Translations under genes and position numbers: made by a program | Assembly (NCBI GenBank): GCA_050298055.1 | Contig: JBNKTL010000067.1 | Location: 3,702 to 15,550, forward strand | Length of the DNA stretch: 11,849 bases | Source of the DNA: Spirochaetota bacterium | GTDB taxonomy: Bacteria; Spirochaetota; UBA4802; UBA5550 | Reading direction: 5' to 3' | Part shown: one piece after another, positions 1 to 11,849 of the stretch | How the letters are laid out: each line of letters begins with the position of its first letter | Position numbering within the stretch: position 1 is the first letter of the stretch | Notes under the pieces: generated by a model | Seen by the model: only the letters and a program-made list of their open reading frames with translations | What the model was told of the DNA's origin: nothing | Databases searched by the model: none

Positions 1-436
1 GGGAATCCCTCTCGAAGCCGACCTCTTCAAGGAGGTCCAGGGCGATGTCGTCCCTTTCGCCGTATTTACCTCCCTCCATCTCCTTCACCCTGGGGGAGCA
101 GAGGGGGATAATAAGATTTTTATAGGCTGCCAGCTGATAAAAGGGCTTTACCATCTGAAATGTCCGGGCAATGCCCAGGAGCACCCTTTTGTGGGGCTGA
201 AGGTTCTGTATCTCTTTCCCATGGAAACGGATTCTACCGGATGTGGGCTTCACAAAACCGGTGATCAGGTTCGCAAGTGTTGTTTTCCCCGATCCGTTGG
301 GGCCGATGACTCCCAGTATTTCACCTTTTTTCAGCTCAAAGCTAATACTGTTTACCGCCTTTATTCCCCCGAAACTTTTAGAGATATTGTCAACTTGTAA
401 TAATGGATGATCTTCTAAAAACGGTTTTTTCCTCAC
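1..436 (-). CDS. livG: Branched-chain amino acid (HAAT) family ABC transporter ATP-binding protein, LivG-like; 3' part runs off the window
   Basis: Not in the ORF track; translated by hand from GTG at 436, which overlaps the livM stop (TAGTG) and has GGAGGTG upstream: MRKKPFLEDHPLLQVDNISKSFGGIKAVNSISFELKKGEILGVIGPNGSGKTTLANLITGFVKPTSGRIRFHGKEIQNLQPHKRVLLGIARTFQMVKPF... Walker A GPNGSGKT and the LivG-type GIARTFQ Q-loop; open to the window edge. Confidence 0.93.
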   Translation of the reverse strand, partial: MRKKPFLEDHPLLQVDNISKSFGGIKAVNSISFELKKGEILGVIGPNGSGKTTLANLITGFVKPTSGRIRFHGKEIQNLQPHKRVLLGIARTFQMVKPFYQLAAYKNLIIPLCSPRVKEMEGGKYGERDDIALDLLEEVGFERDS

Positions 437-1437
437 TACTTCACCTCCACCCAGCGCTCAAACTGCTGGTACTTTCTCTGGATATAGGGGAAAATGCCGT
501 CGGGGAGGGCCACGATAAAGAATACAAGGAACATTCCGTAGAAAACAATTCTGAGACCGCCGAATTCTCTCAACATCTCCGAAAGGGGCACAAGAATAAA
601 AGCTCCCAGGACCGGGCCGGCGAATGTTCCCACGCCGCCGACAACCGATGCGGCTATGGGAAGAATGGCGTAATCCAGGGCAAAGTCGGGGACCCCCACG
701 AAGAGGTATACGTGGGTGATAAATGCCCCTGCGAAACATCCGACTGCGCTTGCAATAAAGAGAACAAAGGCTTTGTAGTTATTTATATTAATGCCGGAGC
801 TTTTTACCGACTGATCATTATCATGGATCCCCTTGAGGACAAGCCCGTAATCTGAAGACATGAAACGTCTGAAACCGAAAAGTACCAGGAGGAGAAAGAT
901 AAGGGGGAGATAAAGCTCAAGCCAGGAGAAGGTAAGCCCGTCAAGCCCTGTAAGTCCCTCGGTCCCGCCGAAAATACGGGTTGCTTCAATGAGTCTTTCG
1001 AAGAATATGGGGAGGATCAGGGTGGTCATGGAAAAGTATATGCCCCGGAGCCTCACAAGGGGCATCAGGATAAAAGTTGAAAAGAGCCCCCCGGCAACCA
1101 TTGCAACAGGTATGGTGATAAAGGGGTGCCAGCCGAAATAGAAATTGAGGACCCCGGAGAAGTAGGCCCCGATCCCGAAAAAGAGGCTCTGACCCAGGGA
1201 GATCATCCCTGTCTGGTTCAGCATGTCCCAGCTCAGGGAGAGTATCCCGAAAACTGCCACCGAAAGGAGCACTCTCTGCCAGTAGGGACCCAGAAACAGC
1301 GCGAGAAAGATAATGATCATAATGGGGAGTACCCTGGGTGCCGCCAGGTAGAGCATCTCCCTCCATGAACTCAGCGCGAATAAATCGCTGGACCGGACCT
1401 TTATACCTCTGTCAATTCTCTCTTTTCTCTTTGCCAT
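436..1437 (-). CDS. livM: HAAT family ABC transporter permease, LivM-like
   Basis: 333 aa, multi-pass hydrophobic. Motifs GMISLGQSLFFGIGAY, RLRGIYFSMTT, GGTEGL, VVGGVGTFAGPVLGA. Start overlaps the livH stop (TAATG). Confidence 0.93.
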   Translation of the reverse strand: MAKRKERIDRGIKVRSSDLFALSSWREMLYLAAPRVLPIMIIIFLALFLGPYWQRVLLSVAVFGILSLSWDMLNQTGMISLGQSLFFGIGAYFSGVLNFYFGWHPFITIPVAMVAGGLFSTFILMPLVRLRGIYFSMTTLILPIFFERLIEATRIFGGTEGLTGLDGLTFSWLELYLPLIFLLLVLFGFRRFMSSDYGLVLKGIHDNDQSVKSSGININNYKAFVLFIASAVGCFAGAFITHVYLFVGVPDFALDYAILPIAASVVGGVGTFAGPVLGAFILVPLSEMLREFGGLRIVFYGMFLVFFIVALPDGIFPYIQRKYQQFERWVEVK

Positions 1438-2309
1438 TATACTCTCTCTTCAAGTTCTTTCTGTTTCCCGAACAATCCTGACGGCTTAAAGGCCAGCACA
1501 AAGAGGATTGTAAGGGGCGGGACAAACATTACCCAGTGTGTGTCAAAGTAAGCGGATGTGAAAGTCTGTATATACCCTATGATGAATGCCGCAATGATAA
1601 GGCCGCCGGTGGAACCCAATCCTCCCACAATGCTCACCGCAAGGGCATTGATAAGGACAACATATCCCTGTTCGATGGATATTGTTCCCAGGGGAAATAT
1701 GGTTATTGCGGAAATGGCAGCAATTGCGGACCCGAAAGCAACGCTCAGGCTTGCGATAAAGTCGGTGTCGATCCCCAGGGTGAGGGCGGTAAATTCGTCC
1801 TGGGCGATCCCCCTGAACGCAAGACCGATCTTGGTATGGTGCGTAAAGACCCAGAGTCCCCCGGTGAGGAAAAGACCGATAATAACAATCATAATCCGCT
1901 GGATAGAAACAGTCACCACTCCCAGGTCGATGCTCCCTTCTATCATTACGGGAAGAGTATACTCGAACCCGTAGAAACCGAGATACCTGAACAGTTCAAG
2001 GACTGCAAGACCGATACCGAATGTGGCAATCACCTCGGAAAGCTCTATTCCCCGGACCCTCTGCAGAATAAACCTGTAGATAAGGGCGCCGAAAAGAGCT
2101 GTTATTAAAATGGATAAAATTGCTGAAAAGGCGTAAGGTATCCCTCCCTTGTGCATCAGTATCCAGGTCATGAGGCCGGCAAAGACATAGAGCCCGCCGT
2201 ATGCGAAATTAGCAATACCGCTGATCCCGAAGACGAGACTGAATCCCAGCGCAACCAGTGCAAGTATGATGCTGTTGATAAAACCCAGAACCATTGTGGA
2301 AAGAAACAT
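1437..2309 (-). CDS. livH: HAAT family ABC transporter permease, LivH-like
   Basis: 290 aa, hydrophobic. Motifs ALVALGFSLVFGISGIANFAYG, TKIGLAFRGIAQD, IVGGLGS, KPSGLFG. GGGGA upstream of the ATG. Confidence 0.93.
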   Translation of the reverse strand: MFLSTMVLGFINSIILALVALGFSLVFGISGIANFAYGGLYVFAGLMTWILMHKGGIPYAFSAILSILITALFGALIYRFILQRVRGIELSEVIATFGIGLAVLELFRYLGFYGFEYTLPVMIEGSIDLGVVTVSIQRIMIVIIGLFLTGGLWVFTHHTKIGLAFRGIAQDEFTALTLGIDTDFIASLSVAFGSAIAAISAITIFPLGTISIEQGYVVLINALAVSIVGGLGSTGGLIIAAFIIGYIQTFTSAYFDTHWVMFVPPLTILFVLAFKPSGLFGKQKELEERV

Positions 2310-2565
2310 CAGATTTCCCCATATTAAGTTGAGATATAAAGTCTCATTTATGATCTCAAACTGTTTTAATTAAGTTTGTAACTACTCACATCTGTCTATA
2401 AAAAGAGATATTTTTATCTTTTTTAACAGTTTTATTCTATTATAACAATGATTTTTCACAATTTCTCAACTCTTTAAATGAGATCTTATAGGGTAATAAA
2501 TAAAAAAACAGATATTTGTTTCGTACCAAAAAGCTGATTAATTACCTGATTTTATTTGTTTACCA

Positions 2566-2600
2566 GATACATATCAGCTATGTTGTAGCTAATATGTATC
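2566..2600. promoter_or_regulatory. Palindromic operator-like element, copy 1 (upstream of livH)
   Basis: GATACATATCAGCTA-tgttg-TAGCTAATATGTATC: 15-bp inverted arms matching at 14/15, with a 5-bp spacer. Homologous copies at ~4251-4276 and ~5165-5190. Confidence 0.8.
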
Positions 2601-2619
2601 CATATTTGATATTTGTCAA
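2591..2619 (-). promoter_or_regulatory. Putative sigma70 promoter for livHMG
   Basis: TTGACA (2619-2614), 17 bp, CATATT (2596-2591). The -10 lies inside operator copy 1. Confidence 0.6.
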
Positions 2620-2670
2620 CAAAAAAGTAAATAATTTTTAATCTTGGGATCTTATTGTGAGGTTATCTTG

Positions 2671-2719
2671 AAAAAATAATATCTCTCGGTCCCTCTCAAT
2701 ACCACAGGGACCGGGAGAG
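2671..2719 (-). terminator. Probable intrinsic terminator downstream of livK-like gene
   Basis: Minus-strand TCTCCCGGTCCCT-11 nt-AGGGACCGAGAGA (13-bp stem, one mismatch) followed by TATTATTTTTT, ~15 nt after the stop codon. Confidence 0.7.
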
Positions 2720-2732
2720 TTGTCAATAAAGA

Positions 2733-4013
2733 CTATTTCTTTCCAATTTTTACCCAGGAAGGAAGTTTGATCTTATCTTCCTGGAGTGATGCAGGATAAA
2801 AAATCTTACGCTTTCCATCATCTTTCCATTGATAAAAAGCTGCAACAGCGGTCTTGTCGGGATCATTTCCGTAGATAACCTGATGTCCCTGGTCAAACTT
2901 GATCCTTCCCATAACACCCTTTCTATCGGTTTTTTCAAGTTCCGCGACTATTTTTTCGGAATCCGTTGAATTTGCTCTTTCTATGGCCTCTTTCAGGAGA
3001 TAAACTGATTCATATGAGGGAGCAGGTCCATGACCGGCCTGGATCTTTTTGCCGAATTTAGCGGCATAGGCGTTGTAGAATTTCTTTGCCGGGGCATATT
3101 TATCTGAGGGAATGTTCCCCAGTTCAAAGATCGCGTTCATGAGCCCGCCGATATTCTTGTCGAAGGTTTTCCATGCAACTTCCCCTGCCATTGGAGATAT
3201 AAAACCGGCAATCAGTGCGGGTACCTGCATACTCTTCCACTGCTTAACCAGAATACCGCTTTCCGGCATATCGAAGGTAACAAAGAGTACCTCTGCGCCG
3301 GAATCTTTGACCTTTTTCAGGCCGGTTGCGAAATCCTGCGCTCCCAGGGGAAACTGTTCGTGACCGGTAACATCCCATCCGGTCTTTTTAAAGAACTTTT
3401 CCTTCATGGCATTGGCTGTACCCCGGGCCCAGGCTACATCCTGGTTCATGAGAAAGACCTTATTCACACCGAACTCCTTTTTCAGGGTCATCATGGTCCC
3501 TCCCAGGAGTTTTGCCCAGTAGATAACATTAAGAGAAACCCTGAAGATATACTTATACTTTTCAGGATCTTTTTTGATCTTTGCTTCGGTTCCGGGAGTC
3601 ATGGCTATGGTACCGAGCAGAGGGACCTTGTGCTTCGCAATAATGTCCATGCTTGCCATGAGAGCTTCGGAACGGAATGGCCCCACAACCAGGGCAGCGG
3701 GTTTCTTCTCGAGGATTATTTTTTCTATTCCCAGCAGCGCTTCGGGAACACGAACGCCCGGGAGACCGTCTCTGATATCGATTTTTTCAACAGATAAAGG
3801 ACGGTTTTTTCCGCCAACTTTAACCCCGCCGGCTTTGTTGATCTCATCAACAGCAAGCATTACAGCATTGAGGGACTCACTCCCTTCAATCAATCCCAGA
3901 GAGGTTGGCAGACCGATAACTATCGGATCACCCCCGGCTTTCTTTTTGCCGCAACTTGAAAAGCCAAAAGTGATCACCACAGCTACAATAAAAAGCAAAA
4001 ATCTTCTCATCAT
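2733..4013 (-). CDS. HAAT/LivK-family ABC transporter substrate-binding lipoprotein (ligand uncertain)
   Basis: 426 aa. Signal peptide with lipobox FSS-C21. LivJ/K-family motifs AVDEINKAGGV, QDFATGLKKVKDSGAEV, YESVYLLKEAIERANSTD, GVMGRIKFD. AAGGAG upstream; adjacent to livHMG. Confidence 0.9.
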   Translation of the reverse strand: MMRRFLLFIVAVVITFGFSSCGKKKAGGDPIVIGLPTSLGLIEGSESLNAVMLAVDEINKAGGVKVGGKNRPLSVEKIDIRDGLPGVRVPEALLGIEKIILEKKPAALVVGPFRSEALMASMDIIAKHKVPLLGTIAMTPGTEAKIKKDPEKYKYIFRVSLNVIYWAKLLGGTMMTLKKEFGVNKVFLMNQDVAWARGTANAMKEKFFKKTGWDVTGHEQFPLGAQDFATGLKKVKDSGAEVLFVTFDMPESGILVKQWKSMQVPALIAGFISPMAGEVAWKTFDKNIGGLMNAIFELGNIPSDKYAPAKKFYNAYAAKFGKKIQAGHGPAPSYESVYLLKEAIERANSTDSEKIVAELEKTDRKGVMGRIKFDQGHQVIYGNDPDKTAVAAFYQWKDDGKRKIFYPASLQEDKIKLPSWVKIGKK

Positions 4014-4472: not shown

Positions 4473-4919
4473 TCAGGTTTTTTTGCTTTGTGTTTCCATC
4501 ATTGTGATAAATACACGCATACTACCTACCATTTTAGAAATATAAACATAATCTTTCACATAGTTATCCAGAGTCTCTTCACTATTTCCTGAATTACTCA
4601 AATCATTTAATAAATCATCAAGATAATTAAGAATACCAAAAGCAACAAACCACGAAACAGAAAACTTAAAGTGTCTCCTTAAATCAAGGACCTTCTCATA
4701 AAATACAGGCTCCAGGTTGATATGTTCGATTTTCCAAACTCTCTCCGGACCGCTATCCTGGTACATCACTGTTTCACTGGGCTTAGGAACAAAGCTGTTT
4801 TTCTTAATGAGCCGTGATATTAGGAGTTTAATCAGTTCATTCTTTGACAGACCAACTTCAGCCGTGGCTTCTCTCAGCTTTAAGATCAGTATTGTGTCTG
4901 CATTAATAGTCGTTCTCAT
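4473..4919 (-). CDS. Hypothetical protein with putative ribbon-helix-helix elements (resembles spirochaetal DUF1564-like proteins)
   Basis: The ORF track gives 4473..4973, but ATG at 4919 (MRTTINADTILILKLREATAEVGLSKNELIKLLI, a beta-strand-helix-helix RHH-like pattern) has AAGGA upstream and is preferred (148 aa). A YQ motif and a second RHH-like segment (HINLEPVFYEKVLDLRRHFKFSVSWFVAFGI) follow. Family assignment is from recalled resemblance only. Confidence 0.65.
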   Translation of the reverse strand: MRTTINADTILILKLREATAEVGLSKNELIKLLISRLIKKNSFVPKPSETVMYQDSGPERVWKIEHINLEPVFYEKVLDLRRHFKFSVSWFVAFGILNYLDDLLNDLSNSGNSEETLDNYVKDYVYISKMVGSMRVFITMMETQSKKT

Positions 4920-5135
4920 ATTATCCATCCTTTTATAGTAAAATGCGGGAAGAGAGTAATTCTTCCCAAACATTAATACGATTGAGGAGTGGGATTAATA
5001 AAAACTTTTTACAAAAAGTGAATTCATGCTGTAATTTCCTGGAATTTAATTCACGCTCAACCGGAACATAAATTATTGAAATCCTGAGAGGAAAAACAGG
5101 GAGCCGGGAATTTTAAAACGGATAAAATTTTTTTC

Positions 5136-5280: not shown

Positions 5281-7299
5281 ATGAGTAAAAATGAATTAAA
5301 ATCAATTTCCGAGGTCGCCGTTATCGGGGCGGGAACAATGGGGGCTGCAATAGCCCAGCATTTCTGCATGAAAAATCTCAAGGTCGTCCTGGTGGACCTT
5401 AACGAGGAGAGTCTCAAAAGGGGAAAAAAGAATATTGAAGGTTCACTGGGTGAAGCGGTTGAACGAAAGATCATGACCCCTGAAGAGATGGAAGAGTGCC
5501 TGGGAAGGATAAACTTTACCGATTCATACGAAGACCTGGAAAACTGCCAGTATGTTGTGGAAGCGGTATTTGAGGACTTTAATGTGAAAAAATCGGTCTT
5601 CAGTAAAATCGAGGAAAATGTTTCAGATGACTGTGTCATCGCATCCAATACCTCCTCCTTTCCCATCACAGAGTTGGGTAAAGACCTGAAAAATCCGGAA
5701 AGATTTCTCGGGATCCACTACTTCTACCATGCGGCAAAAAACAAGCTGGTGGAGATCATCCCGGGTGAGAAGACAGCGGGACACTTCACAGATTCTCTCA
5801 ACGACTTCTATTTCTACTACGACAAGCTCCCCATAATTGTGGGGGATGTTCCCGGATTTGCGGTGAACCGGTTTTTTGTTCCCTGGCTCAATGAAGCGGT
5901 AAGGCTCTTTGAAGAGGGACAGGGTTCCAGGGAACAGATCGACAGGATCTCCTGCGAGGTTTTTCGGGTGGGGATGGGCCCCTTCGCGCTGATGAACGCT
6001 ACCGGTGTGCCTATTGCACAGCATGCCTCCCAGACCCTTGCAGATGCATTTGGCCCTTTTTATACCCCGGCGGAAAAACTGAAAAGCCAGGTTGAGGCGG
6101 GAAAGGAGTGGGAGATAAACGACCAGGGGGCTGATCCCGGTTCCGATGATATCATCAAAGAGCGGATGCTGGGGGCGACCCTGGGTGTGGCCGCCCAGAT
6201 GGTCACCGAGGGAGTAACAAATCCCACTGATACTGACCTCGGGGCTCGCATCGGACTTCGCTGGCCGCAGGGCCCTTTTGAAATGATGAACCGGATCGGG
6301 ATTGATACGGCAATAAATTCAATTAAAAATGTCTTCTCAAAGTGGGACCTTGAACTCCCCGGGATATTTTCTCAAATAGATAAAAAGAAGGGGTTCCCCT
6401 GCGAATATGTGAGGGTCCATTTTTCCGGGAATACAGCGGTTATTGAATTTAACCGGCCCGACAGTATGAATGCCCTCAACGAGGAGGTCATGGAACAGCT
6501 CTCAGATGTTTTTATCAGGGCGGAGAGCAGTGCCGATGTTGAAAAGATCATCTTCTTCGGCAAGGGGAAAGCCTTTATTGCCGGAGCGGACATCAAGTTC
6601 TTTATCGATAATATTGACAGCGGGAAGATAGATTCAATTTATGAATTTACCGATTTTGGACAGAAGGTTCTTTCCCGAATTTCCGGCTCGAAAAAAACAA
6701 CCATCGCCTATGTTGACGGCCTGGCGCTGGGAGGAGGGCTGGAGTTCGCTCTTGCCTGCGATTACAGGATCGGGACTGCCAGGACAACACTTGCATTCCC
6801 CGAAACCGGGATCGGTATTTATCCCGGCCTGGGGGGAACACAGAGGACAACCCGCCTTGTGGGAAAGGGACTGGCCAAGTTCCTGGTGGCAACCGGGAGG
6901 ATGATAAACGCTGACAAGGCACTTTCAATGGGACTCATCGATTCACTCTCGGAAAGGATCGAGGGAATTGATGAACTGGCCGGGATATCCGCCCCCAAAA
7001 GAAATAAAGTCGATCCTTCAACCCATCCTGAGAACGGATTTGAGAGCTATGACGGAACAGTAAATGAGAAGCTCTTTGAAAATGAACTCTTTGCAAAGTA
7101 TGAAAAGCAGCTGAAGAGCAGGGCCCCCCTGGCGTTAAAGAAAGCCATGGAGCTCATTGATGAAGGTGAAAAGTCAGACCTGGATGAGGCCCTGCAGCTT
7201 GAACTGAAATCCCTGAAAGAGATGTTCGCAACAAAGGACGCCCGGGAGGGATTGGGAAGCGTCATTGAAAGGAAAAGGCCCGTATATAAAGGAGAATAA
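5281..7299 (+). CDS. Bifunctional 3-hydroxyacyl-CoA dehydrogenase (N-terminal) / enoyl-CoA hydratase (C-terminal)
   Basis: 672 aa. Rossmann GAGTMG, VEAVFE, SNTSS, catalytic His146/Glu158 pair (GIHYFYHAAKNKLVE), GFAVNR, and two 3HCDH C-terminal repeats (MGPF, QGPF). Crotonase motifs NRPDSMNALN, FIAGADI, LGGGLEFALACDYR and FPETGIGIYPGLGGTQR, with both catalytic Glu present. Confidence 0.95.
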   Translation: MSKNELKSISEVAVIGAGTMGAAIAQHFCMKNLKVVLVDLNEESLKRGKKNIEGSLGEAVERKIMTPEEMEECLGRINFTDSYEDLENCQYVVEAVFEDFNVKKSVFSKIEENVSDDCVIASNTSSFPITELGKDLKNPERFLGIHYFYHAAKNKLVEIIPGEKTAGHFTDSLNDFYFYYDKLPIIVGDVPGFAVNRFFVPWLNEAVRLFEEGQGSREQIDRISCEVFRVGMGPFALMNATGVPIAQHASQTLADAFGPFYTPAEKLKSQVEAGKEWEINDQGADPGSDDIIKERMLGATLGVAAQMVTEGVTNPTDTDLGARIGLRWPQGPFEMMNRIGIDTAINSIKNVFSKWDLELPGIFSQIDKKKGFPCEYVRVHFSGNTAVIEFNRPDSMNALNEEVMEQLSDVFIRAESSADVEKIIFFGKGKAFIAGADIKFFIDNIDSGKIDSIYEFTDFGQKVLSRISGSKKTTIAYVDGLALGGGLEFALACDYRIGTARTTLAFPETGIGIYPGLGGTQRTTRLVGKGLAKFLVATGRMINADKALSMGLIDSLSERIEGIDELAGISAPKRNKVDPSTHPENGFESYDGTVNEKLFENELFAKYEKQLKSRAPLALKKAMELIDEGEKSDLDEALQLELKSLKEMFATKDAREGLGSVIERKRPVYKGE

Positions 7300-7347
7300 A
7301 AAAATCCTCCATTGTTATAAAAAAATAAAGAATCATTATCATTAGAC

Positions 7348-7374
7348 CCGCCTGATCTCCAGGCGGTTTTTTTT
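7348..7374 (+). terminator. Intrinsic terminator of the dehydrogenase/hydratase gene
   Basis: CCGCCTG-atctc-CAGGCGG perfect 7-bp GC-rich stem followed by T8. Confidence 0.9.
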
Positions 7375-7401
7375 GTGAGTAAATGAGAGTCGCCGGCAGA
7401 T

Positions 7402-7444
7402 AAATGAAAGAGGCCGTCACGAAAGAAATCCGGGACGGCCCTTT
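7402..7444 (-). terminator. Probable terminator downstream of tRNA-Pro
   Basis: Minus-strand GGCCGTC...GACGGCC stem (extendable with AAAG/CTTT) followed by TCTTTCATTT, ~12 nt after the tRNA 3' end. Confidence 0.6.
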
Positions 7445-7456
7445 GATTTTAAGCTT

Positions 7457-7530
7457 TCGGGGCGACTGGATTTGAACCAGCGACCACATGACCCCCAGTC
7501 ATGTGCGCTACCTGACTGCGCCACGCCCCG
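7457..7530 (-). tRNA. tRNA-Pro(GGG), CCA not encoded
   Basis: Reverse complement folds as a cloverleaf: acceptor CGGGGCG/CGCCCCG plus A discriminator, D-arm GCGC/GCGC, anticodon arm CATGA-CT GGG GG-TCATG (anticodon 7496-7494), T-arm GCTGG-TTCAAAT-CCAGT. Confidence 0.97.
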
Positions 7531-7668
7531 CTCTGAAATATGATGTATAACTAATTATCAGCCCTGATTTTGTAAAGGAAAAACCGGTAAATTCGGGTAT
7601 TTTTGTTAGATATTTTATTTTATAAAAAAAGGTGACAAAATGTAAGGGATCATTCCCTCATCAGCCCC

Positions 7669-8496
7669 TTACTGCTCTTTGCCACCCGTCTTCTTAAACA
7701 GCTTCCCGTCCCAGAGATAATTCTCGGTGCTCCTGTCTATCTCCTTCCCGCATACTGACTCACTTTTAATGATGACGGTATTGATATTTTTCTCCCTCTC
7801 TCCTGGGAAAAAGATCATCTCCTTTCCGGTTATTCCCGCGCAGTTGACCTGGTCCCCGTCCATATCAAAATTGTATTTTACGTCAAATGCCGAAAGGATC
7901 TTTTTATTGTTCATATAAAAGAAATGTTCTCCGTCAATACCGGGATAGGAGACGCTATACCTGATGCTGAAGAGTTTTACCGGGGGAGAAAACTTTTTTC
8001 CGGGATAGTAGATAAGCTGCTTCAGGGCAATATCGGTGTCTCCGGTTACCTCTTTTTCGGTGATGAGTCTTTTGTCTTTTGAAATTCGTATCAGTATAAC
8101 CGGGTATTGGCGGATACTGTTTCTTGCCAGTATGGTTTCATGTTTTCCGTCATTATCGATATCCGCTTCAAAGGCGTAAGGGGTTAACAGACCCCCCCAT
8201 ATGTAGCCTTCCAGAGCGCCTGCTTTTATTTTATACCAGAAGTCCTCCAGTCCTTTTACCTTCAGCGGCTGAGCTGTTTTTTTTATGATCCTGATTTTTT
8301 TCCCAATGGTGAGAAGGCCTGCCTTTTTCCCTCCTGTTGAAGGTCGTGAACGTATATTGACCCGGTCCCCGAATATAAAAACGGTGCTCCCCGGTTTTAA
8401 TCCCGGATTGTTTTCATCGGGGAGTGCCGATGAAAAAGAAAAAGGATCAATAAGAAGAAAGAAAACAATCATTAATAATACAGAATAATATTTCAT
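7669..8496 (-). CDS. Secreted SH3b-domain-containing protein
   Basis: 275 aa. N-terminal signal peptide; bacterial SH3 pattern VNIRSRPS...G..I.II...FWYKIK...EGYIWGGLL; then DIDNDG (DxDxDG) and a beta-rich C-terminus ending YLWDGKLFKK. AGGGA upstream. Confidence 0.82.
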   Translation of the reverse strand: MKYYSVLLMIVFFLLIDPFSFSSALPDENNPGLKPGSTVFIFGDRVNIRSRPSTGGKKAGLLTIGKKIRIIKKTAQPLKVKGLEDFWYKIKAGALEGYIWGGLLTPYAFEADIDNDGKHETILARNSIRQYPVILIRISKDKRLITEKEVTGDTDIALKQLIYYPGKKFSPPVKLFSIRYSVSYPGIDGEHFFYMNNKKILSAFDVKYNFDMDGDQVNCAGITGKEMIFFPGEREKNINTVIIKSESVCGKEIDRSTENYLWDGKLFKKTGGKEQ

Positions 8497-8725: not shown

Positions 8726-8828
8726 ACGGATTATTCTTATAAAGCGGCAGTGGTAAAAAAAGGAAATTCAATTACGATTTATTATTTTTATAAAGATATT
8801 ATATATATTATTTTTCCGGAGGTGAAAA

Positions 8829-9677
8829 ATGATCATTCACCGATTCAGATTAAAAATTCACATTCTCCTTCTGATGGTATTTCTTATCCCGGGGGCGGGG
8901 CCTGCTTCAGAAAAAAAAACCTATACTATCGGAGTCATCCCTACCTGGCCCCCGGTTGTGACCTATGCGCAATGGTCCCCATTTGTGGAGAGACTTTCTC
9001 ATGATACCGGTCTGAAGCTGCGGCTCAGGGTTTATGAAAAAATGTCTGACTTTGAACGTGAGATAATTACTTCAAAGGGCCCTGATTTCATATTCGCCAA
9101 CGCTTTGCAGGCAGTTATTGCCCACAGGGAACAGGGATATATCCCCCTTGTCAGGGGTAAGAACGGTGTTGAAGGCATACTCTTTGTAAAAAGAGACTCA
9201 AATATAAGGAATGTGGAGGATCTCTCCGGAAAAAGGATTGCCTTTGTGGGAAGCAAGAACCTTTGAACAGTCTTTATCAGACACGTGCTGTCTGAAAAGA
9301 GCAGCAAACTGAATTTTAAATATTCCTACACGGGGTCCACAAAGAACTCCATCATGAATGTTTTCCTGGGAAAAGCGGATGCGGGTGTTACCTTGAGTCC
9401 TGTTTTTGACACGGAACCGGAGAATATCAGGAACCGGGTCCGTGTTCTATTAAAAACAGAGAAAATAACTTCACACCCTCTCTGTTCCCATCCCCGTGTT
9501 CCGGAAGTGGTGAGAAAGATCTTCAAAAAAACGGTGCTGGCTCTGCCAAAAACCGAAAGGGGAAAGGAACTTCTGAAAAAGACGAGGCTTCCCATGCCGG
9601 TTGAAGCCGGATATAACCGGGACTACAGGTATTTACAAAAGGTGAATATTAAAAAACTGTCAGACTGGGGCATGTAA
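8829..9677 (+). CDS. PhnD-like (phosphate/phosphite/phosphonate-binding fold) periplasmic binding protein, predicted selenoprotein (Sec at codon 146, TGA 9264-9266), 282 aa
   Basis: Track ORFs 8829..9266 and 9285..9677 are in the same frame, separated only by one TGA: ...[27 protein letters not shown]... Joined, they give a full-length PhnD-like protein (signal peptide, [64 protein letters not shown]). GGAGG SD at 8818-8822; SECIS-like hairpin follows the TGA. Confidence 0.85.
9264..9300 (+). promoter_or_regulatory. Bacterial SECIS element (cis-acting Sec recoding hairpin)
   Basis: TGA-ACAG-TCTTT(A)TCAGACA-CGTGC-TGTCTGA-AAAGA: 12 Watson-Crick pairs with one bulged A and a 5-nt apical loop with GU at positions 2-3. 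There are 17 nt between the UGA and the loop, which fits the bacterial SECIS consensus. Confidence 0.82.
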
Positions 9678-9678
9678 T

Positions 9679-11849
9679 ATGGGTCTCTTCCCGCGTCACC
9701 TGAAGATGCAGATAGTCACAATGGTCACCACTATCCTTCTGGCAACGGGTGCCACAATAGGGTGGTTAAATGCCAGGAGGCATTCAGATTTTCTCGAAAA
9801 GTCCCTGCAGAGCAATGCAAAAACAATGACTCTTCATTATGCTGACCGGAGTGCCTATTATATGGTACTGGGTGATTTTGCGGGTTTAGAGAGCTTTCTT
9901 ATACGCTCGGCAGCACATTCTGATATTTCACAACTCCAGGTCTGCGAAACAAATGGATTTGTGCTGGGAAGCACAAAGAAGCATTCAAATGGTAAAAATG
10001 AGCCTGTGCGGGATAACGAGTTCATTATACCGCCTCTCACCTTCAGGGAGACCCTTGTAATTCAGGGTAACGATCTTATCATCTGGCAGCCAATTTCCGC
10101 GGGAACTCCCCTTGGGTGGTTAAAGGCCCGTTTCAATCTTGAATCGGTAAAAGCACTTCAGACTGAAGCATGGATGGAGATATTTTTCGTTACCCAGTTC
10201 TGGATCCTCTGCAGTGCTCTCCTCCTCCTCTTATTGCTGCGTCCTGTCGTCAGGGATATCGGTCTGCTGTCGAAATTTGCCAGGAGACTTGATGAAAAGA
10301 AAGGGGAAGAGGTAAACATCAGGGTTCAAACAGATGAAATTACGGAACTGGCAGCATCATTGAACCATGCTTCCCGCAGACTCTTCCAAACGGAAAACCA
10401 GCTGGTGGAAGAACAGGAGAGACTGAGATTCAGTGAGGAGAAGTACAGGAGGCTGATTCAGAAAGTAAAAGCCGCGGTGATAATGTACGGTACGGATGGC
10501 CGTATTCTTTCAGGAAATGTCATTGCCCGGCAGATGCTGGGAGTTTCCGAAAAGGAGATGCTTCAGGTAACAGAAGATGCTTTAGGCTTTAAACTCCTCC
10601 GGGAGGATGGATCAGAGATCCGATATGACTCCTATCCTGCGAACCTGGCTTTAACCCGGAACAGATACATGGACAACCGGATAATCGGCATCAGGAGAAA
10701 TGACCGGGAGGATGCAGTATGGGCTCTGGCCAGTACAGACTCCATGAAGGATGACAGCGGCAGAGTAACTGAAATCATACTGACCCTGATCGATATTACC
10801 GATTTGAAAAATGCCGAGGATGAAATAACAAGACATCAGCGCCATCTCGAGTCGCTGGTGCACGAAAGAACGTCTGAGCTTGAGAATGCAACAAAGCTGA
10901 ACCGGCAGTATCTAGACATTGCAGGTGTAATCCTTGTTGCCATAAATGCAGACCAGACGGTAACCATGATCAACAGCAAGGGGTGCGATGTTCTTGGTGC
11001 GGAATCCCATGAGATTATAGGTAAAAACTGGTTCACAACATTCATCCCCGAAAGAAACCGTGAAGATGTTCTCACCAGTTTTCATAAAATAATAACCGGT
11101 GAGATCGCACCTGTAGAATATTTTGAAAATCCTGTTTTAACCAGGGACGGGAAAGAGCGCCTTATAGCCTGGCACAATTCCCTCGTTAAAGATGATAAAG
11201 GGAAAATAACCGGTTCACTCAGTTCAGGTGAGGATATTACAGAGCAGAGGCGTGCCGAGGAACAGATACAAAAACTTAATGAAGACCTCCGGAAACGGGC
11301 AGCTGACCTTGAGGAAGCAAACAGGGAGCTTGAATCCTTCGCATATACGGTTTCACATGATCTCAGGGCACCAATAAGGCATATTGACGGTTTTGTAGGG
11401 CTCCTGGAAAAAAAAACCGGAGATAAGCTGGATAAAGAAGAGGCATACTATTTGCAGATGGTATCGCAATCGGCCAGAAAAATGGGTGAGTTGATCGACG
11501 ATCTTCTCTCCTTCTCACGGATGGGACGGCTGGCAATTAATCTGAAAAAAGTGGATCTGGATTATATGGTCCATGATATTGTGCGTGAACTTAGACCTGA
11601 CTGCAGGGGGAGGAGGATTAAGTGGCAAATCGGCAGGCTTCCTCAGGTTTTCGGTGACTATTCCATGCTTCGAATTGTTCTTATAAACCTGATTTCAAAT
11701 GCGGTGAAGTTTACAAAAAACCGTAAAGAGGCTGTGAAAATCCTTTCCAAGAGTCAGTATGTTGGTGCGGATTACGAAGTTATCGCCAACAGTATGACTG
11801 GCACTTTTGAGTATGAAAAAGGCGATAAGCGCGATGTGCCAGATTTCAA
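9679..11849 (+). CDS. Membrane-bound PAS-domain sensor histidine kinase (TM-periplasmic-TM-HAMP-PAS-PAS-HisKA-partial HATPase); open at window end, last ~38 codons are not kinase-like
   Basis: Not in the ORF track because there is no stop in the window. ATG 9679: [30 protein letters not shown] (TM1); [20 protein letters not shown] (TM2, ~10180-10239); [23 protein letters not shown]...DITDLK (PAS1); YLDIAGV...GEDITEQR (PAS2); H-box [16 protein letters not shown] (His at 11356-11358); [11 protein letters not shown]-box NLISNAVKF (to 11712). Confidence 0.92.
11719..11849 (+). other. In-frame fragment resembling an NrtA/CmpA/NasF-type nitrate ABC transporter substrate-binding protein (probable chimeric junction)
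   Basis: Translation [43 protein letters not shown] matches my recollection of the conserved C-terminal half of proteobacterial NrtA-type proteins. It replaces the expected kinase G1 box (V.DNG.GF). Confidence 0.75.

Follow-up and report, generated by a model that had tools for sequence, protein, structure and literature searches.

The window described here is a stretch of 11,849 nucleotides (nt) from a Spirochaetota bacterium (GenBank assembly GCA_050298055.1, contig JBNKTL010000067.1, positions 3,702 to 15,550 of the forward strand). It carries a gene whose reading frame is broken by a single TGA codon and which very probably encodes a selenoprotein. The predicted product is a periplasmic binding protein with selenocysteine (Sec, U) at residue 146. 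The gene lies directly ahead of a gene for a sensor histidine kinase. The features of this locus, in window positions, are the following.

8818-8824, forward strand: Shine-Dalgarno sequence GGAGGTG, 4 nt ahead of the ATG at 8829, read from the sequence.
8829-9677, forward strand: gene for the predicted Sec-containing PhnD-fold periplasmic binding protein with U146, from the read-through translation, PF12974, an AlphaFold2 model and Foldseek.
8829-8909, forward strand: probable signal peptide of the general secretory (Sec) pathway, about residues 1-27, with a basic start and a hydrophobic stretch, then PA followed by SE.
9264-9266, forward strand: UGA codon for residue 146, predicted to specify selenocysteine; Cys in homologues, TGA in 17 other distinct genes.
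9277-9295, forward strand: conserved core of the putative selenocysteine insertion sequence (SECIS), a stem of 7 base pairs (bp) joining 9277-9283 with 9289-9295 around the loop CGUGC (9284-9288), with an invariant G at 9285.
9679-11847, forward strand: sensor histidine kinase and likely partner, cut by the contig end, from Pfam and translation; a first transmembrane segment (TM1), a periplasmic part of about 135 amino acids (aa), a second segment (TM2), then HAMP-like, PAS and HisKA domains.

Two open reading frames (ORFs) in the same frame, 8829-9266 (145 aa) and 9285-9677, are parted by the lone TGA at 9264-9266. When this codon is read through, 8829-9677 translates into 282 codons followed by a TAA at 9675-9677. 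The family PF12974 (Phosphonate-bd) spans the TGA as a single match covering residues 34-253 (Pfam, E 6e-40, 137.6 bits, cut-off 27). The GTG that would start the second ORF (9285-9287) is situated inside the loop of the hairpin, and no GGAGG-like site is found upstream of it. That 8829-9677 is one gene for a single predicted exported selenoprotein, and not two half genes, is strongly supported. Export would probably proceed via the predicted signal peptide. In the AlphaFold2 model the N-terminal helix (residues 3-18) is detached and has a lower predicted local distance difference test score (pLDDT).

The TGA at 9264-9266 is unchanged in the contigs of two sequencing runs, X1, which may be the source of the assembly, and X2, which comes from another sample of the same study. 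A third run, X4, holds a relative of about 87% identity, and no change at 9264-9266 appears among the differences listed for it. These run comparisons used contigs and not raw reads. With the same TGA in 17 other genes, a sequencing error can in practice be excluded.

Used as a query, the read-through protein found 119 full-length homologues. Cysteine occupies the aligned column in 103 of them, and this column holds the sole conserved Cys of the binding protein. The other 16 are the most distant homologues and have Gly (11), Ala (3), Val (1) or a gap (1) instead. Scans of contigs from genomes and metagenomes found TGA at the column in 18 distinct genes and TGC or TGT in 58, a ratio biased towards Cys because one scan pattern ended in Cys. 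The 18 TGA genes are the window gene, a paralogue in the same genome and 16 others, and they come from at least two phyla. Their records are titled Desulfobacter, Geobacter, Trichlorobacter, Thermodesulfovibrio, Nitrospirota or “Proteobacteria bacterium”, and seven are metagenome contigs. Cys-type orthologues occur in cultured strains, such as those of the Geomonas spp., Geobacter sp. OR-1, Citrifermentans bremense R1 and Geothrix rubra records, whereas the loci examined included no cultured host of a Sec-type gene.

The paralogue (G000:C16:50215-51027, L008:1468-2319) is 55% identical to the window protein and contains one TGA, at the same column (..GEKNV-U-TIF..). It also has the same apical hairpin as the window gene. 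No sensor gene comes after it. A Lys-rich ORF of 189 aa lies upstream, and an ORF of 227 aa, open at its 3' end, lies about 800 nt downstream.

Genes of this kind are already present in databases as fragments. When the N-terminal 145 residues were used as the query, 44 short proteins of 93-147 aa were found, and all 44 end one residue before the column. Two of these are this genome's own, and three (145-146 aa) carry the NCBI name [quoted passage not shown]. Among the best 150 matches in a set of representatives at 50% identity, 13 have Cys at the column and 5 end there. A different kind of fragment is seen in the protein P0110 (273 aa, ENA), where the N-terminal half of the family occupies residues 131-273 and ends exactly at the Sec column. 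This is a Sec-type gene cut at the TGA, to which the gene caller added an upstream extension of 130 residues.

The part of the gene after the TGA is intact. In all eight gene pairs compared, 135-136 codons are kept there. Four of the eight pairs, the closer ones, have more synonymous than non-synonymous codon differences (23:17 for loci L009/L102, 51:27 for L049/L056, 44:33 for L048/L058 and 32:27 for L008/L102). Non-synonymous differences are more numerous in the other four; for instance, the window gene and its paralogue differ by 44 synonymous and 68 non-synonymous changes.

A preliminary description of this DNA, made from the sequence alone, had anticipated much of this. It saw two ORFs of one frame split by a single TGA, which the coordinates, the translation and the PF12974 match across the TGA bear out. 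It noted that the start GTG of the second ORF falls in the loop and lacks a Shine-Dalgarno sequence, and GGAGGTG indeed precedes only the true ATG. It proposed checking that the TGA is real, and the codon recurs unchanged in the second sample's contigs (contigs, not reads). The Cys or TGA that it looked for at the aligned column is found in homologues, as Cys in 103 of 119 and as TGA in the paralogue and 16 further distinct genes. It also expected automated pipelines to split the gene, as happened in the 44 short entries ending at the column.

The consensus for bacterial SECIS elements places 16-37 nt between the UGA and the loop, with a G in the first two loop positions. RNAfold predicts a hairpin at 9271-9300 with 5+7 bp, the loop CGUGC at 9284-9288 and 17 nt from the UGA to the loop. 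This reproduces the hairpin of the preliminary description, with the same loop at the same distance. That account took all 12 bp for the SECIS element. The upper stem of 6-7 bp has held up and alone is kept, while the 5 bp that extend it downwards to 9271-9300 are not conserved.

Seven pairs were scored across the related genes, +13 to +19 with +31 to +25, counting the U of the UGA as 0. All 18 TGA genes keep at least six of the seven in one register (13 keep seven and 5 keep six). One Cys-type gene near a contig end was dropped from the comparison, and the remaining 57 keep two pairs (11 genes), three (18), four (22), five (5) or six (1). The pair counts of the two types differ with a Mann-Whitney p of 4.5e-11, in which related rows are not independent.

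The 18-row alignment of TGA genes also shows covariation. All rows share a loop of 5 nt, in which the G at the second position is invariant. The named structure pairs 96.0% of the cells, and sliding the partner strand by 1-3 columns leaves 26-47%. Alignment pair 21-37 is CG in 9 rows, GC in 4, UA in 4 and UG in 1, and pair 22-36 is AU in 16 and CG in 2. Double compensatory changes occur in three stem pairs. The covariation score is 0.343, compared with 0.126 ± 0.024 in shuffled alignments, and none of 500 shuffles reached it. RNAalifold independently recovers the same 6-bp stem. An example of a compensatory change that is synonymous on both sides is found in locus L094, where Arg AGA has become CGG and the paired Ser UCU has become UCG.

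Codon choice provides a further control. When all synonymous recodings of the seven codons are considered, the observed pairs are kept by 0.9-5.6% of them in Sec-type genes (median 1.2%). The median for Cys-type genes is 62%, with no gene of the 57 below 5%. Selection thus acts on the hairpin as RNA, and it does so only in genes with a TGA codon. A covarying hairpin confined to TGA-type genes had been named beforehand as a check on the selenoprotein reading, and the comparison of types, the covariation and the recoding control agree in finding one.

In all but one of the 18 Sec forms the hairpin forces the sequence R-H/Q-V/G-L/M-S on the protein; the exception (L103) has Phe for Ser. Cys forms mostly have (Q/R)-H-L-L-(A/G) at the same place. 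This is a clean example of a SECIS element dictating a peptide motif of its host protein. In Rfam, positions 9200-9360 gave no relevant match up to E = 10, and no curated bacterial SECIS model matched. The hairpin was also considered as a transcription terminator; this reading was rejected, no terminator-like site being found at the hairpin.

The host genome, which is 98% complete, has the full machinery for selenocysteine. It contains selA (391.7 bits), an adjacent selB (wing domain, 50.2 bits), selD (360.8 bits) with a TGA of its own, and one tRNA-SeC with anticodon tca. The four genes selA, selB, selC and selD, for which the preliminary description had suggested looking, are thus all accounted for, and none of the refutation tests that it named refuted the selenoprotein reading. 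The selB and selA genes adjoin on G000:C5:43611-50226 (L001, L002). ARAGORN reports the tRNA-SeC at 48989-49078 (complement) of a contig that it does not name, coordinates that fall just past selA on C5.

Other selenoprotein genes of the same genome serve as controls. FdhA, a second Fdh-like gene and two HdrA/MvhD-type matches have one TGA each. The SECIS loops examined in this genome are GUC, GGUCU, GGA, GGA and GGA, and they start between +20 and about +30. The loop starts at +20 in SelD, +21 in the Fdh-like gene and +22 in FdhA, and that of the window gene starts at +20.

The relationship between Sec and Cys forms was followed in a tree of 73 rows (quick IQ-TREE search, LG+G4), in which the Sec/Cys column was set to one letter and two partial genes were left out. 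The tree needs seven Sec/Cys changes, and at least four are forced by well-supported branches. The window protein belongs to a clade (support 96) of eight Sec forms and one Cys form, the latter from a Sedimenticolaceae record. Cys forms without the hairpin are the sister group of the Sec forms in the Geobacter group. Families of true selenoproteins usually show such dynamic exchanges.

Pfam, the structure model and the fold search show that the protein has two lobes and the PhnD/PtxB/ArrX fold of periplasmic binding proteins. The AlphaFold2 model has a pLDDT of 93.9 and a predicted template modelling (TM) score of 0.85. Foldseek matched it to PtxB (E 2.8e-19), ArrX (TM-score 0.73/0.79), PhnD and AioX, with E values of about 1e-18 to 1e-19 for PtxB, PhnD and ArrX. 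A profile search of solved structures ranked ArrX best (E 5e-15), followed by PtxB, PhnD and AioX.

Residue 146 is located on the first turn of the helix 145-157 in the model, after the strand 136-139. The profile alignment places the Cys/Sec column at the second Ser of the ArrX sequence S-F-S-G, which is the S-x-S oxyanion motif. According to the available part of the AioX paper, Ser161 and Ser163 of AioX correspond to the oxyanion-binding Ser127 and Ser129 of PhnD, Asn162 of AioX to Thr128 of PhnD, and the AioX pocket residues are conserved in ArrX (PMC5908839).

By alignment, most of this pocket is changed in the window protein. The alignment replaces the two pocket Tyr by Met72 and a variable residue, the first Ser of S-x-S by Asn144 and the pocket His by Thr171. 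Alignment via ArrX puts Asn91 in place of the arsenite-bonding Cys106 of AioX (Ser in most homologues) and Ser190 in place of Asp210, and the AioX set of Tyr88, Cys106, Tyr131, Ser161, Ser163, His192 and Asp210 is not kept. With Met72 standing for Tyr, Asn144 for Ser and Thr171 for His among the classical oxyanion ligands, a tetrahedral ligand of the phosphate, phosphonate or arsenate type appears unlikely on these sequence grounds.

A sister subfamily without Cys or Sec shows which changes go with the residue. It has Gly or Ala at the column (..FPSPNAFGAS..) and is found in Thiobacillus and Rhodocyclaceae-type records. It shares the invariant residues W49, D86, R109, H216, H221, R223, D265 and Y266 with the window subfamily, and it keeps a His at the position equivalent to His157 of PhnD. 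It has Pro140, Ala144 and Gly146, compared with Val, Asn and Cys/Sec in the window subfamily. Comparing the 103 Cys-type proteins with 15 Gly/Ala/Val-type proteins, the subfamily-specific residues are Pro41, Val140, Gly141, Asn144, Cys146, Ser170 and Lys182. Met72 is present in 80% of the Cys-type proteins, with Ile in the sister group, and Thr171 replaces the sister-group His. Most of the subfamily-specific changes are concentrated in the ligand loops.

The kinase gene starts 2 nt past the stop codon of the binding-protein gene. Using the first 250 residues of the kinase (TM-periplasmic-TM-HAMP) as a tblastn query, a homologue is found directly downstream of the binding-protein gene in 70 of the 73 loci with enough DNA, including 15 of 17 Sec-type and 55 of 56 Cys-type loci. 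The module is missing after the C16 paralogue, on one short contig and at one Cys-type locus. Beyond residue 250 the outputs of the partners differ and may be a histidine kinase (HisKA/HATPase), a hybrid with a receiver, or an array of GAF and PAS domains. A receiver domain is fused or encoded next in related loci L049, L058, L015 and L028; the window contig ends inside the kinase. Together, the binding protein and the sensor form a cassette that occurs widely, in records of the Geobacter, Desulfuromonas, Rhodocyclales and Nitrospirota types.

In related loci, 83 proteins encoded upstream or downstream were scanned; none matched an ABC permease or ATPase family, and no arsenic-metabolism genes were seen beside the loci scanned. 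The sole ABC genes in the window are of the Liv type, on the opposite strand and about 5 kb off, and none adjoins the binding-protein gene. The upstream and second downstream positions hold a mixed set, among them other kinases, TonB receptors, OEP and Phenol_MetA_deg, and no metabolic partner recurs. What is conserved is thus the pair of binding protein and membrane sensor module, an arrangement shared with aioXSR and arrXSR. The sensor module in 70 of 73 loci and the lack of ABC transporter genes among the neighbours scanned therefore make a sensor partner, not an importer, most likely. On this analogy the binding protein is likely to be the partner of the adjacent sensor module, like AioX and ArrX, and not a subunit of an importer. 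The preliminary description had called the protein an exported Sec-containing solute-binding protein; the Sec stands, but the protein is more likely to serve the adjacent sensor kinase than to be a transporter subunit, given the homologous sensor module in 70 of 73 loci.

Some loci have additional genes of interest. In L010 a second PhnD-family gene (6876-7754, PF12974, E 1.9e-43) comes directly after the sensor, and in L011 a Gly-type motif is found upstream, around position 1373. These second PhnD-family genes suggest tandem cassettes of binding protein and sensor. In two Sec-type loci of the window's clade (L089:2591-3430 and L092:2561-3400), the gene just upstream encodes a 279-aa Phenol_MetA_deg protein (PF13557), a family that we take to be outer-membrane channel-like. 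The upstream counterpart in the window is a divergent gene for a 275-aa SH3_3 protein (7669-8496), with no Phenol_MetA_deg. The remaining features of the window are the following.

7457-7530, reverse strand: tRNA-Pro, anticodon GGG, the sole match in the window to Rfam (gathering threshold) or ARAGORN.
Within 436-4013, reverse strand: two Liv-type ABC permeases and a Peripla_BP_6 binding protein, ordinary genes.
5281-7299, forward strand: FadB-like fusion of 672 aa, 3-hydroxyacyl-CoA dehydrogenase and enoyl-CoA hydratase, an ordinary gene.
4473-4973, reverse strand: ORF of 166 aa with no Pfam or NCBIfam match.

The closest known systems are the arsenic-oxyanion sensors ArrX from Chrysiogenes arsenatis and AioX from Rhizobium sp. 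NT-26, which belong to XSR modules and share the PhnD-type fold. As in the window, their binding-protein gene lies directly ahead of the gene for a sensor kinase. To our knowledge, neither ArrX nor AioX has a selenoprotein form. In the window protein, unlike ArrX and AioX, a sulfur or selenium atom replaces the second Ser of S-x-S, and the Tyr, Tyr and His ligands are not kept. AioX does bond arsenite through a pocket cysteine, as described in the available part of the paper (PMC5908839), but its Cys106 is on the other lobe than Sec146.

PhnD and PtxB, the binding proteins of phosphonate and phosphite ABC transporters, share PF12974 and the fold with the window protein. The window protein scores far below the PhnD equivalog TIGR03431 (51.4 bits against a cut-off of 261.1), and neither phnC nor phnE is adjacent. 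The phosphonate-binding Tyr, Tyr, Ser-Thr-Ser and His of PhnD correspond here to Met72, a variable residue, Asn144-Leu145-Sec146 and Thr171, in an alignment of about 20% identity.

Another comparison is with SaoB and SaoX. The available part of the preprint describing them reports binding folds with a Sec or Cys proposed to line the pocket, typically split into two ORFs, and states that no Sec-containing binding protein was known before them (Haft and Gwadz, bioRxiv 10.1101/2022.07.06.499078). They belong to other families; their models NF040727 and NF040735 are not among the six NCBIfam matches of the window protein at E <= 0.01. The motif is CU in SaoB and UxP in SaoX, compared with L-U-T/S in the window family (KNL-U-T in the window). 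SaoB and SaoX sit in a nine-gene transporter/organometallic neighbourhood, whereas the window gene is beside a sensor kinase.

The window family is apparently an uncatalogued selenoprotein family. The table of 119 prokaryotic selenoprotein families in a May 2026 review contains no PF12974 or PhnD entry, and its binding-protein entries are SaoB, SaoX and BtuF (PMC13188914). There is no such family in the main text and four supplementary files of the deep-Sep paper, and no mention of phosphonate or PhnD in the available part of the SaoB/SaoX preprint (bioRxiv 10.1101/2022.07.06.499078). NCBIfam release 20 has no dedicated model, and its best matches, TIGR01098 and TIGR03431, are far below their cut-offs. 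Full-text searches of the literature yielded no report, although the lists of Haft and Tolstoy 2025 (mSystems) and Deng et al. 2026 could contain the family.

The best overall explanation, and a probable one, is that a Sec-decoded binding protein serves the adjacent sensor kinase. In this model, SelB and Sec-tRNA(Sec) would read the UGA at 9264-9266 as Sec. Decoding would be directed by the hairpin 10 nt downstream, with its 7-bp stem, 5-nt loop and G at loop position 2. After export, a ligand would close the lobes of the binding protein. The closed, ligand-loaded protein would then dock on the periplasmic domain of the kinase and switch the phosphorelay, as in AioX-AioS and ArrX-ArrS. Such docking on the periplasmic domain of the partner is inferred by analogy with these systems.

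The selenolate, or the thiolate in Cys forms, may touch the signal molecule directly. A reversible Se-X bond would be possible with a thiophilic species, for instance a metalloid, a soft metal or a reactive compound of sulfur or selenium. The position of the Sec, together with the exchange of hard oxygen ligands for Met, Asn and Sec/Cys, suggests contact with a thiophilic or redox-active signal. The Cys106-arsenite bond of AioX, at another pocket position, is a precedent for covalent sensing in this fold, according to the available part of the paper (PMC5908839). Direct contact between Sec146 and the putative ligand is about an even chance. It is possible, although somewhat doubtful, that this is the first selenoprotein family in bacterial signal perception, in which a pocket selenolate captures a signal through a reversible Se-X bond and reports it to a membrane sensor.

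Other explanations of the gene have to be considered alongside a Sec-decoded partner of the kinase. The protein could be a real selenoprotein that binds solutes for an ABC importer whose other genes lie elsewhere, with the Sec capturing a thiophilic substrate to be taken up. In favour of this, the Pfam family takes its name from ABC transporter binding proteins, SaoB and SaoX offer a precedent as proposed Sec-containing transporter binding proteins, and the C16 paralogue is an orphan without a kinase. This model is nonetheless unlikely: a homologous membrane sensor module is next in 70 of 73 loci, no scanned neighbour (0 of 83) matches an ABC permease or ATPase, and the Liv-type genes of the window are about 5 kb away on the other strand. 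A slightly better candidate, but still an improbable one, keeps the kinase as partner and makes Sec146 a redox switch. The residue would be oxidised by periplasmic oxidants or polysulfide, possibly forming a mixed Se-S bond, and its state would be signalled. A lone Cys/Sec that is kept throughout, in a protein where no second Cys is conserved, would suit such a switch, as would the hosts, which the record titles suggest are for the most part anaerobic or microaerophilic. The periplasmic domain of the kinase also has two semi-conserved Cys columns (..AESCA.. and ..LQVCEP..), each present in 27 of 47 sequences. However, neither is universal. The window kinase has Ser at the first column and Cys89 at the second (9679-10428; periplasmic residues 30-165), and both Cys are absent from the four Sec-type partners of the Geobacter group. 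The data therefore do not support an obligatory Se-S switch between the protein and a kinase Cys. Moreover, residue 146 is at the canonical ligand position of the fold, and the adjoining pocket residues changed together with it, suggesting a defined ligand.

The alternative that the UGA is not decoded as Sec at all would make the locus a pseudogene, a sequencing error, two genes, or a case of readthrough by a standard tRNA. In its favour, the hairpin is not significant on a single sequence. It is very improbable, since the same TGA occurs in the paralogue and 16 other distinct genes and is unchanged in the second sample's contigs, and since the downstream half is intact and under purifying selection. 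The hairpin is TGA-specific, covarying and kept by codon choice, Cys is at the column in 103 of 119 homologues, the Sec machinery is complete, and the GTG in the loop has no ribosome-binding site.

Several observations weigh against a Sec-decoded partner of the kinase or weaken parts of it. The single-sequence fold of the hairpin is unremarkable (z = -1.56), and 14 of 200 shuffles fold as well. The loop of the window gene starts with C, compared with G in the five same-genome loops examined. The contig scan used a Cys-ending pattern, which skews the Cys:Sec ratio towards Cys. The pocket mapping is a profile alignment at about 20% identity, in which single positions could be off by one. The C16 paralogue has no adjoining kinase, and the pairing of binding protein and kinase is therefore not obligatory. 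The neighbour genes are heterogeneous and point to no ligand or regulated pathway. Finally, 40 other genomes from the family and order of the host gave no match to the gene at E <= 1e-20. With so patchy a distribution, kin offer no synteny for comparison, and the role of the gene in the host is not inferable from them.

Catalogued bacterial selenoproteins are nearly all redox enzymes or their helpers. Here, a Sec is predicted in the ligand pocket of a binding protein, a fold that is not enzymatic, whose gene is coupled to one for signal transduction. If this is confirmed, the prokaryotic selenoproteome would gain a family, and dozens of public entries filed as 145-aa “phosph(on)ate ABC transporter substrate-binding proteins” would be corrected. 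It would also define a widespread sensor cassette of a binding protein and a membrane sensor module. Sec- and Cys-type sensors found side by side would provide a natural comparison of the part that selenium plays in ligand recognition. If the residue does capture the signal, selenium would tune the sensitivity of a two-component system and not the rate of a redox enzyme, and the repeated exchanges between Sec and Cys would be tuning events.

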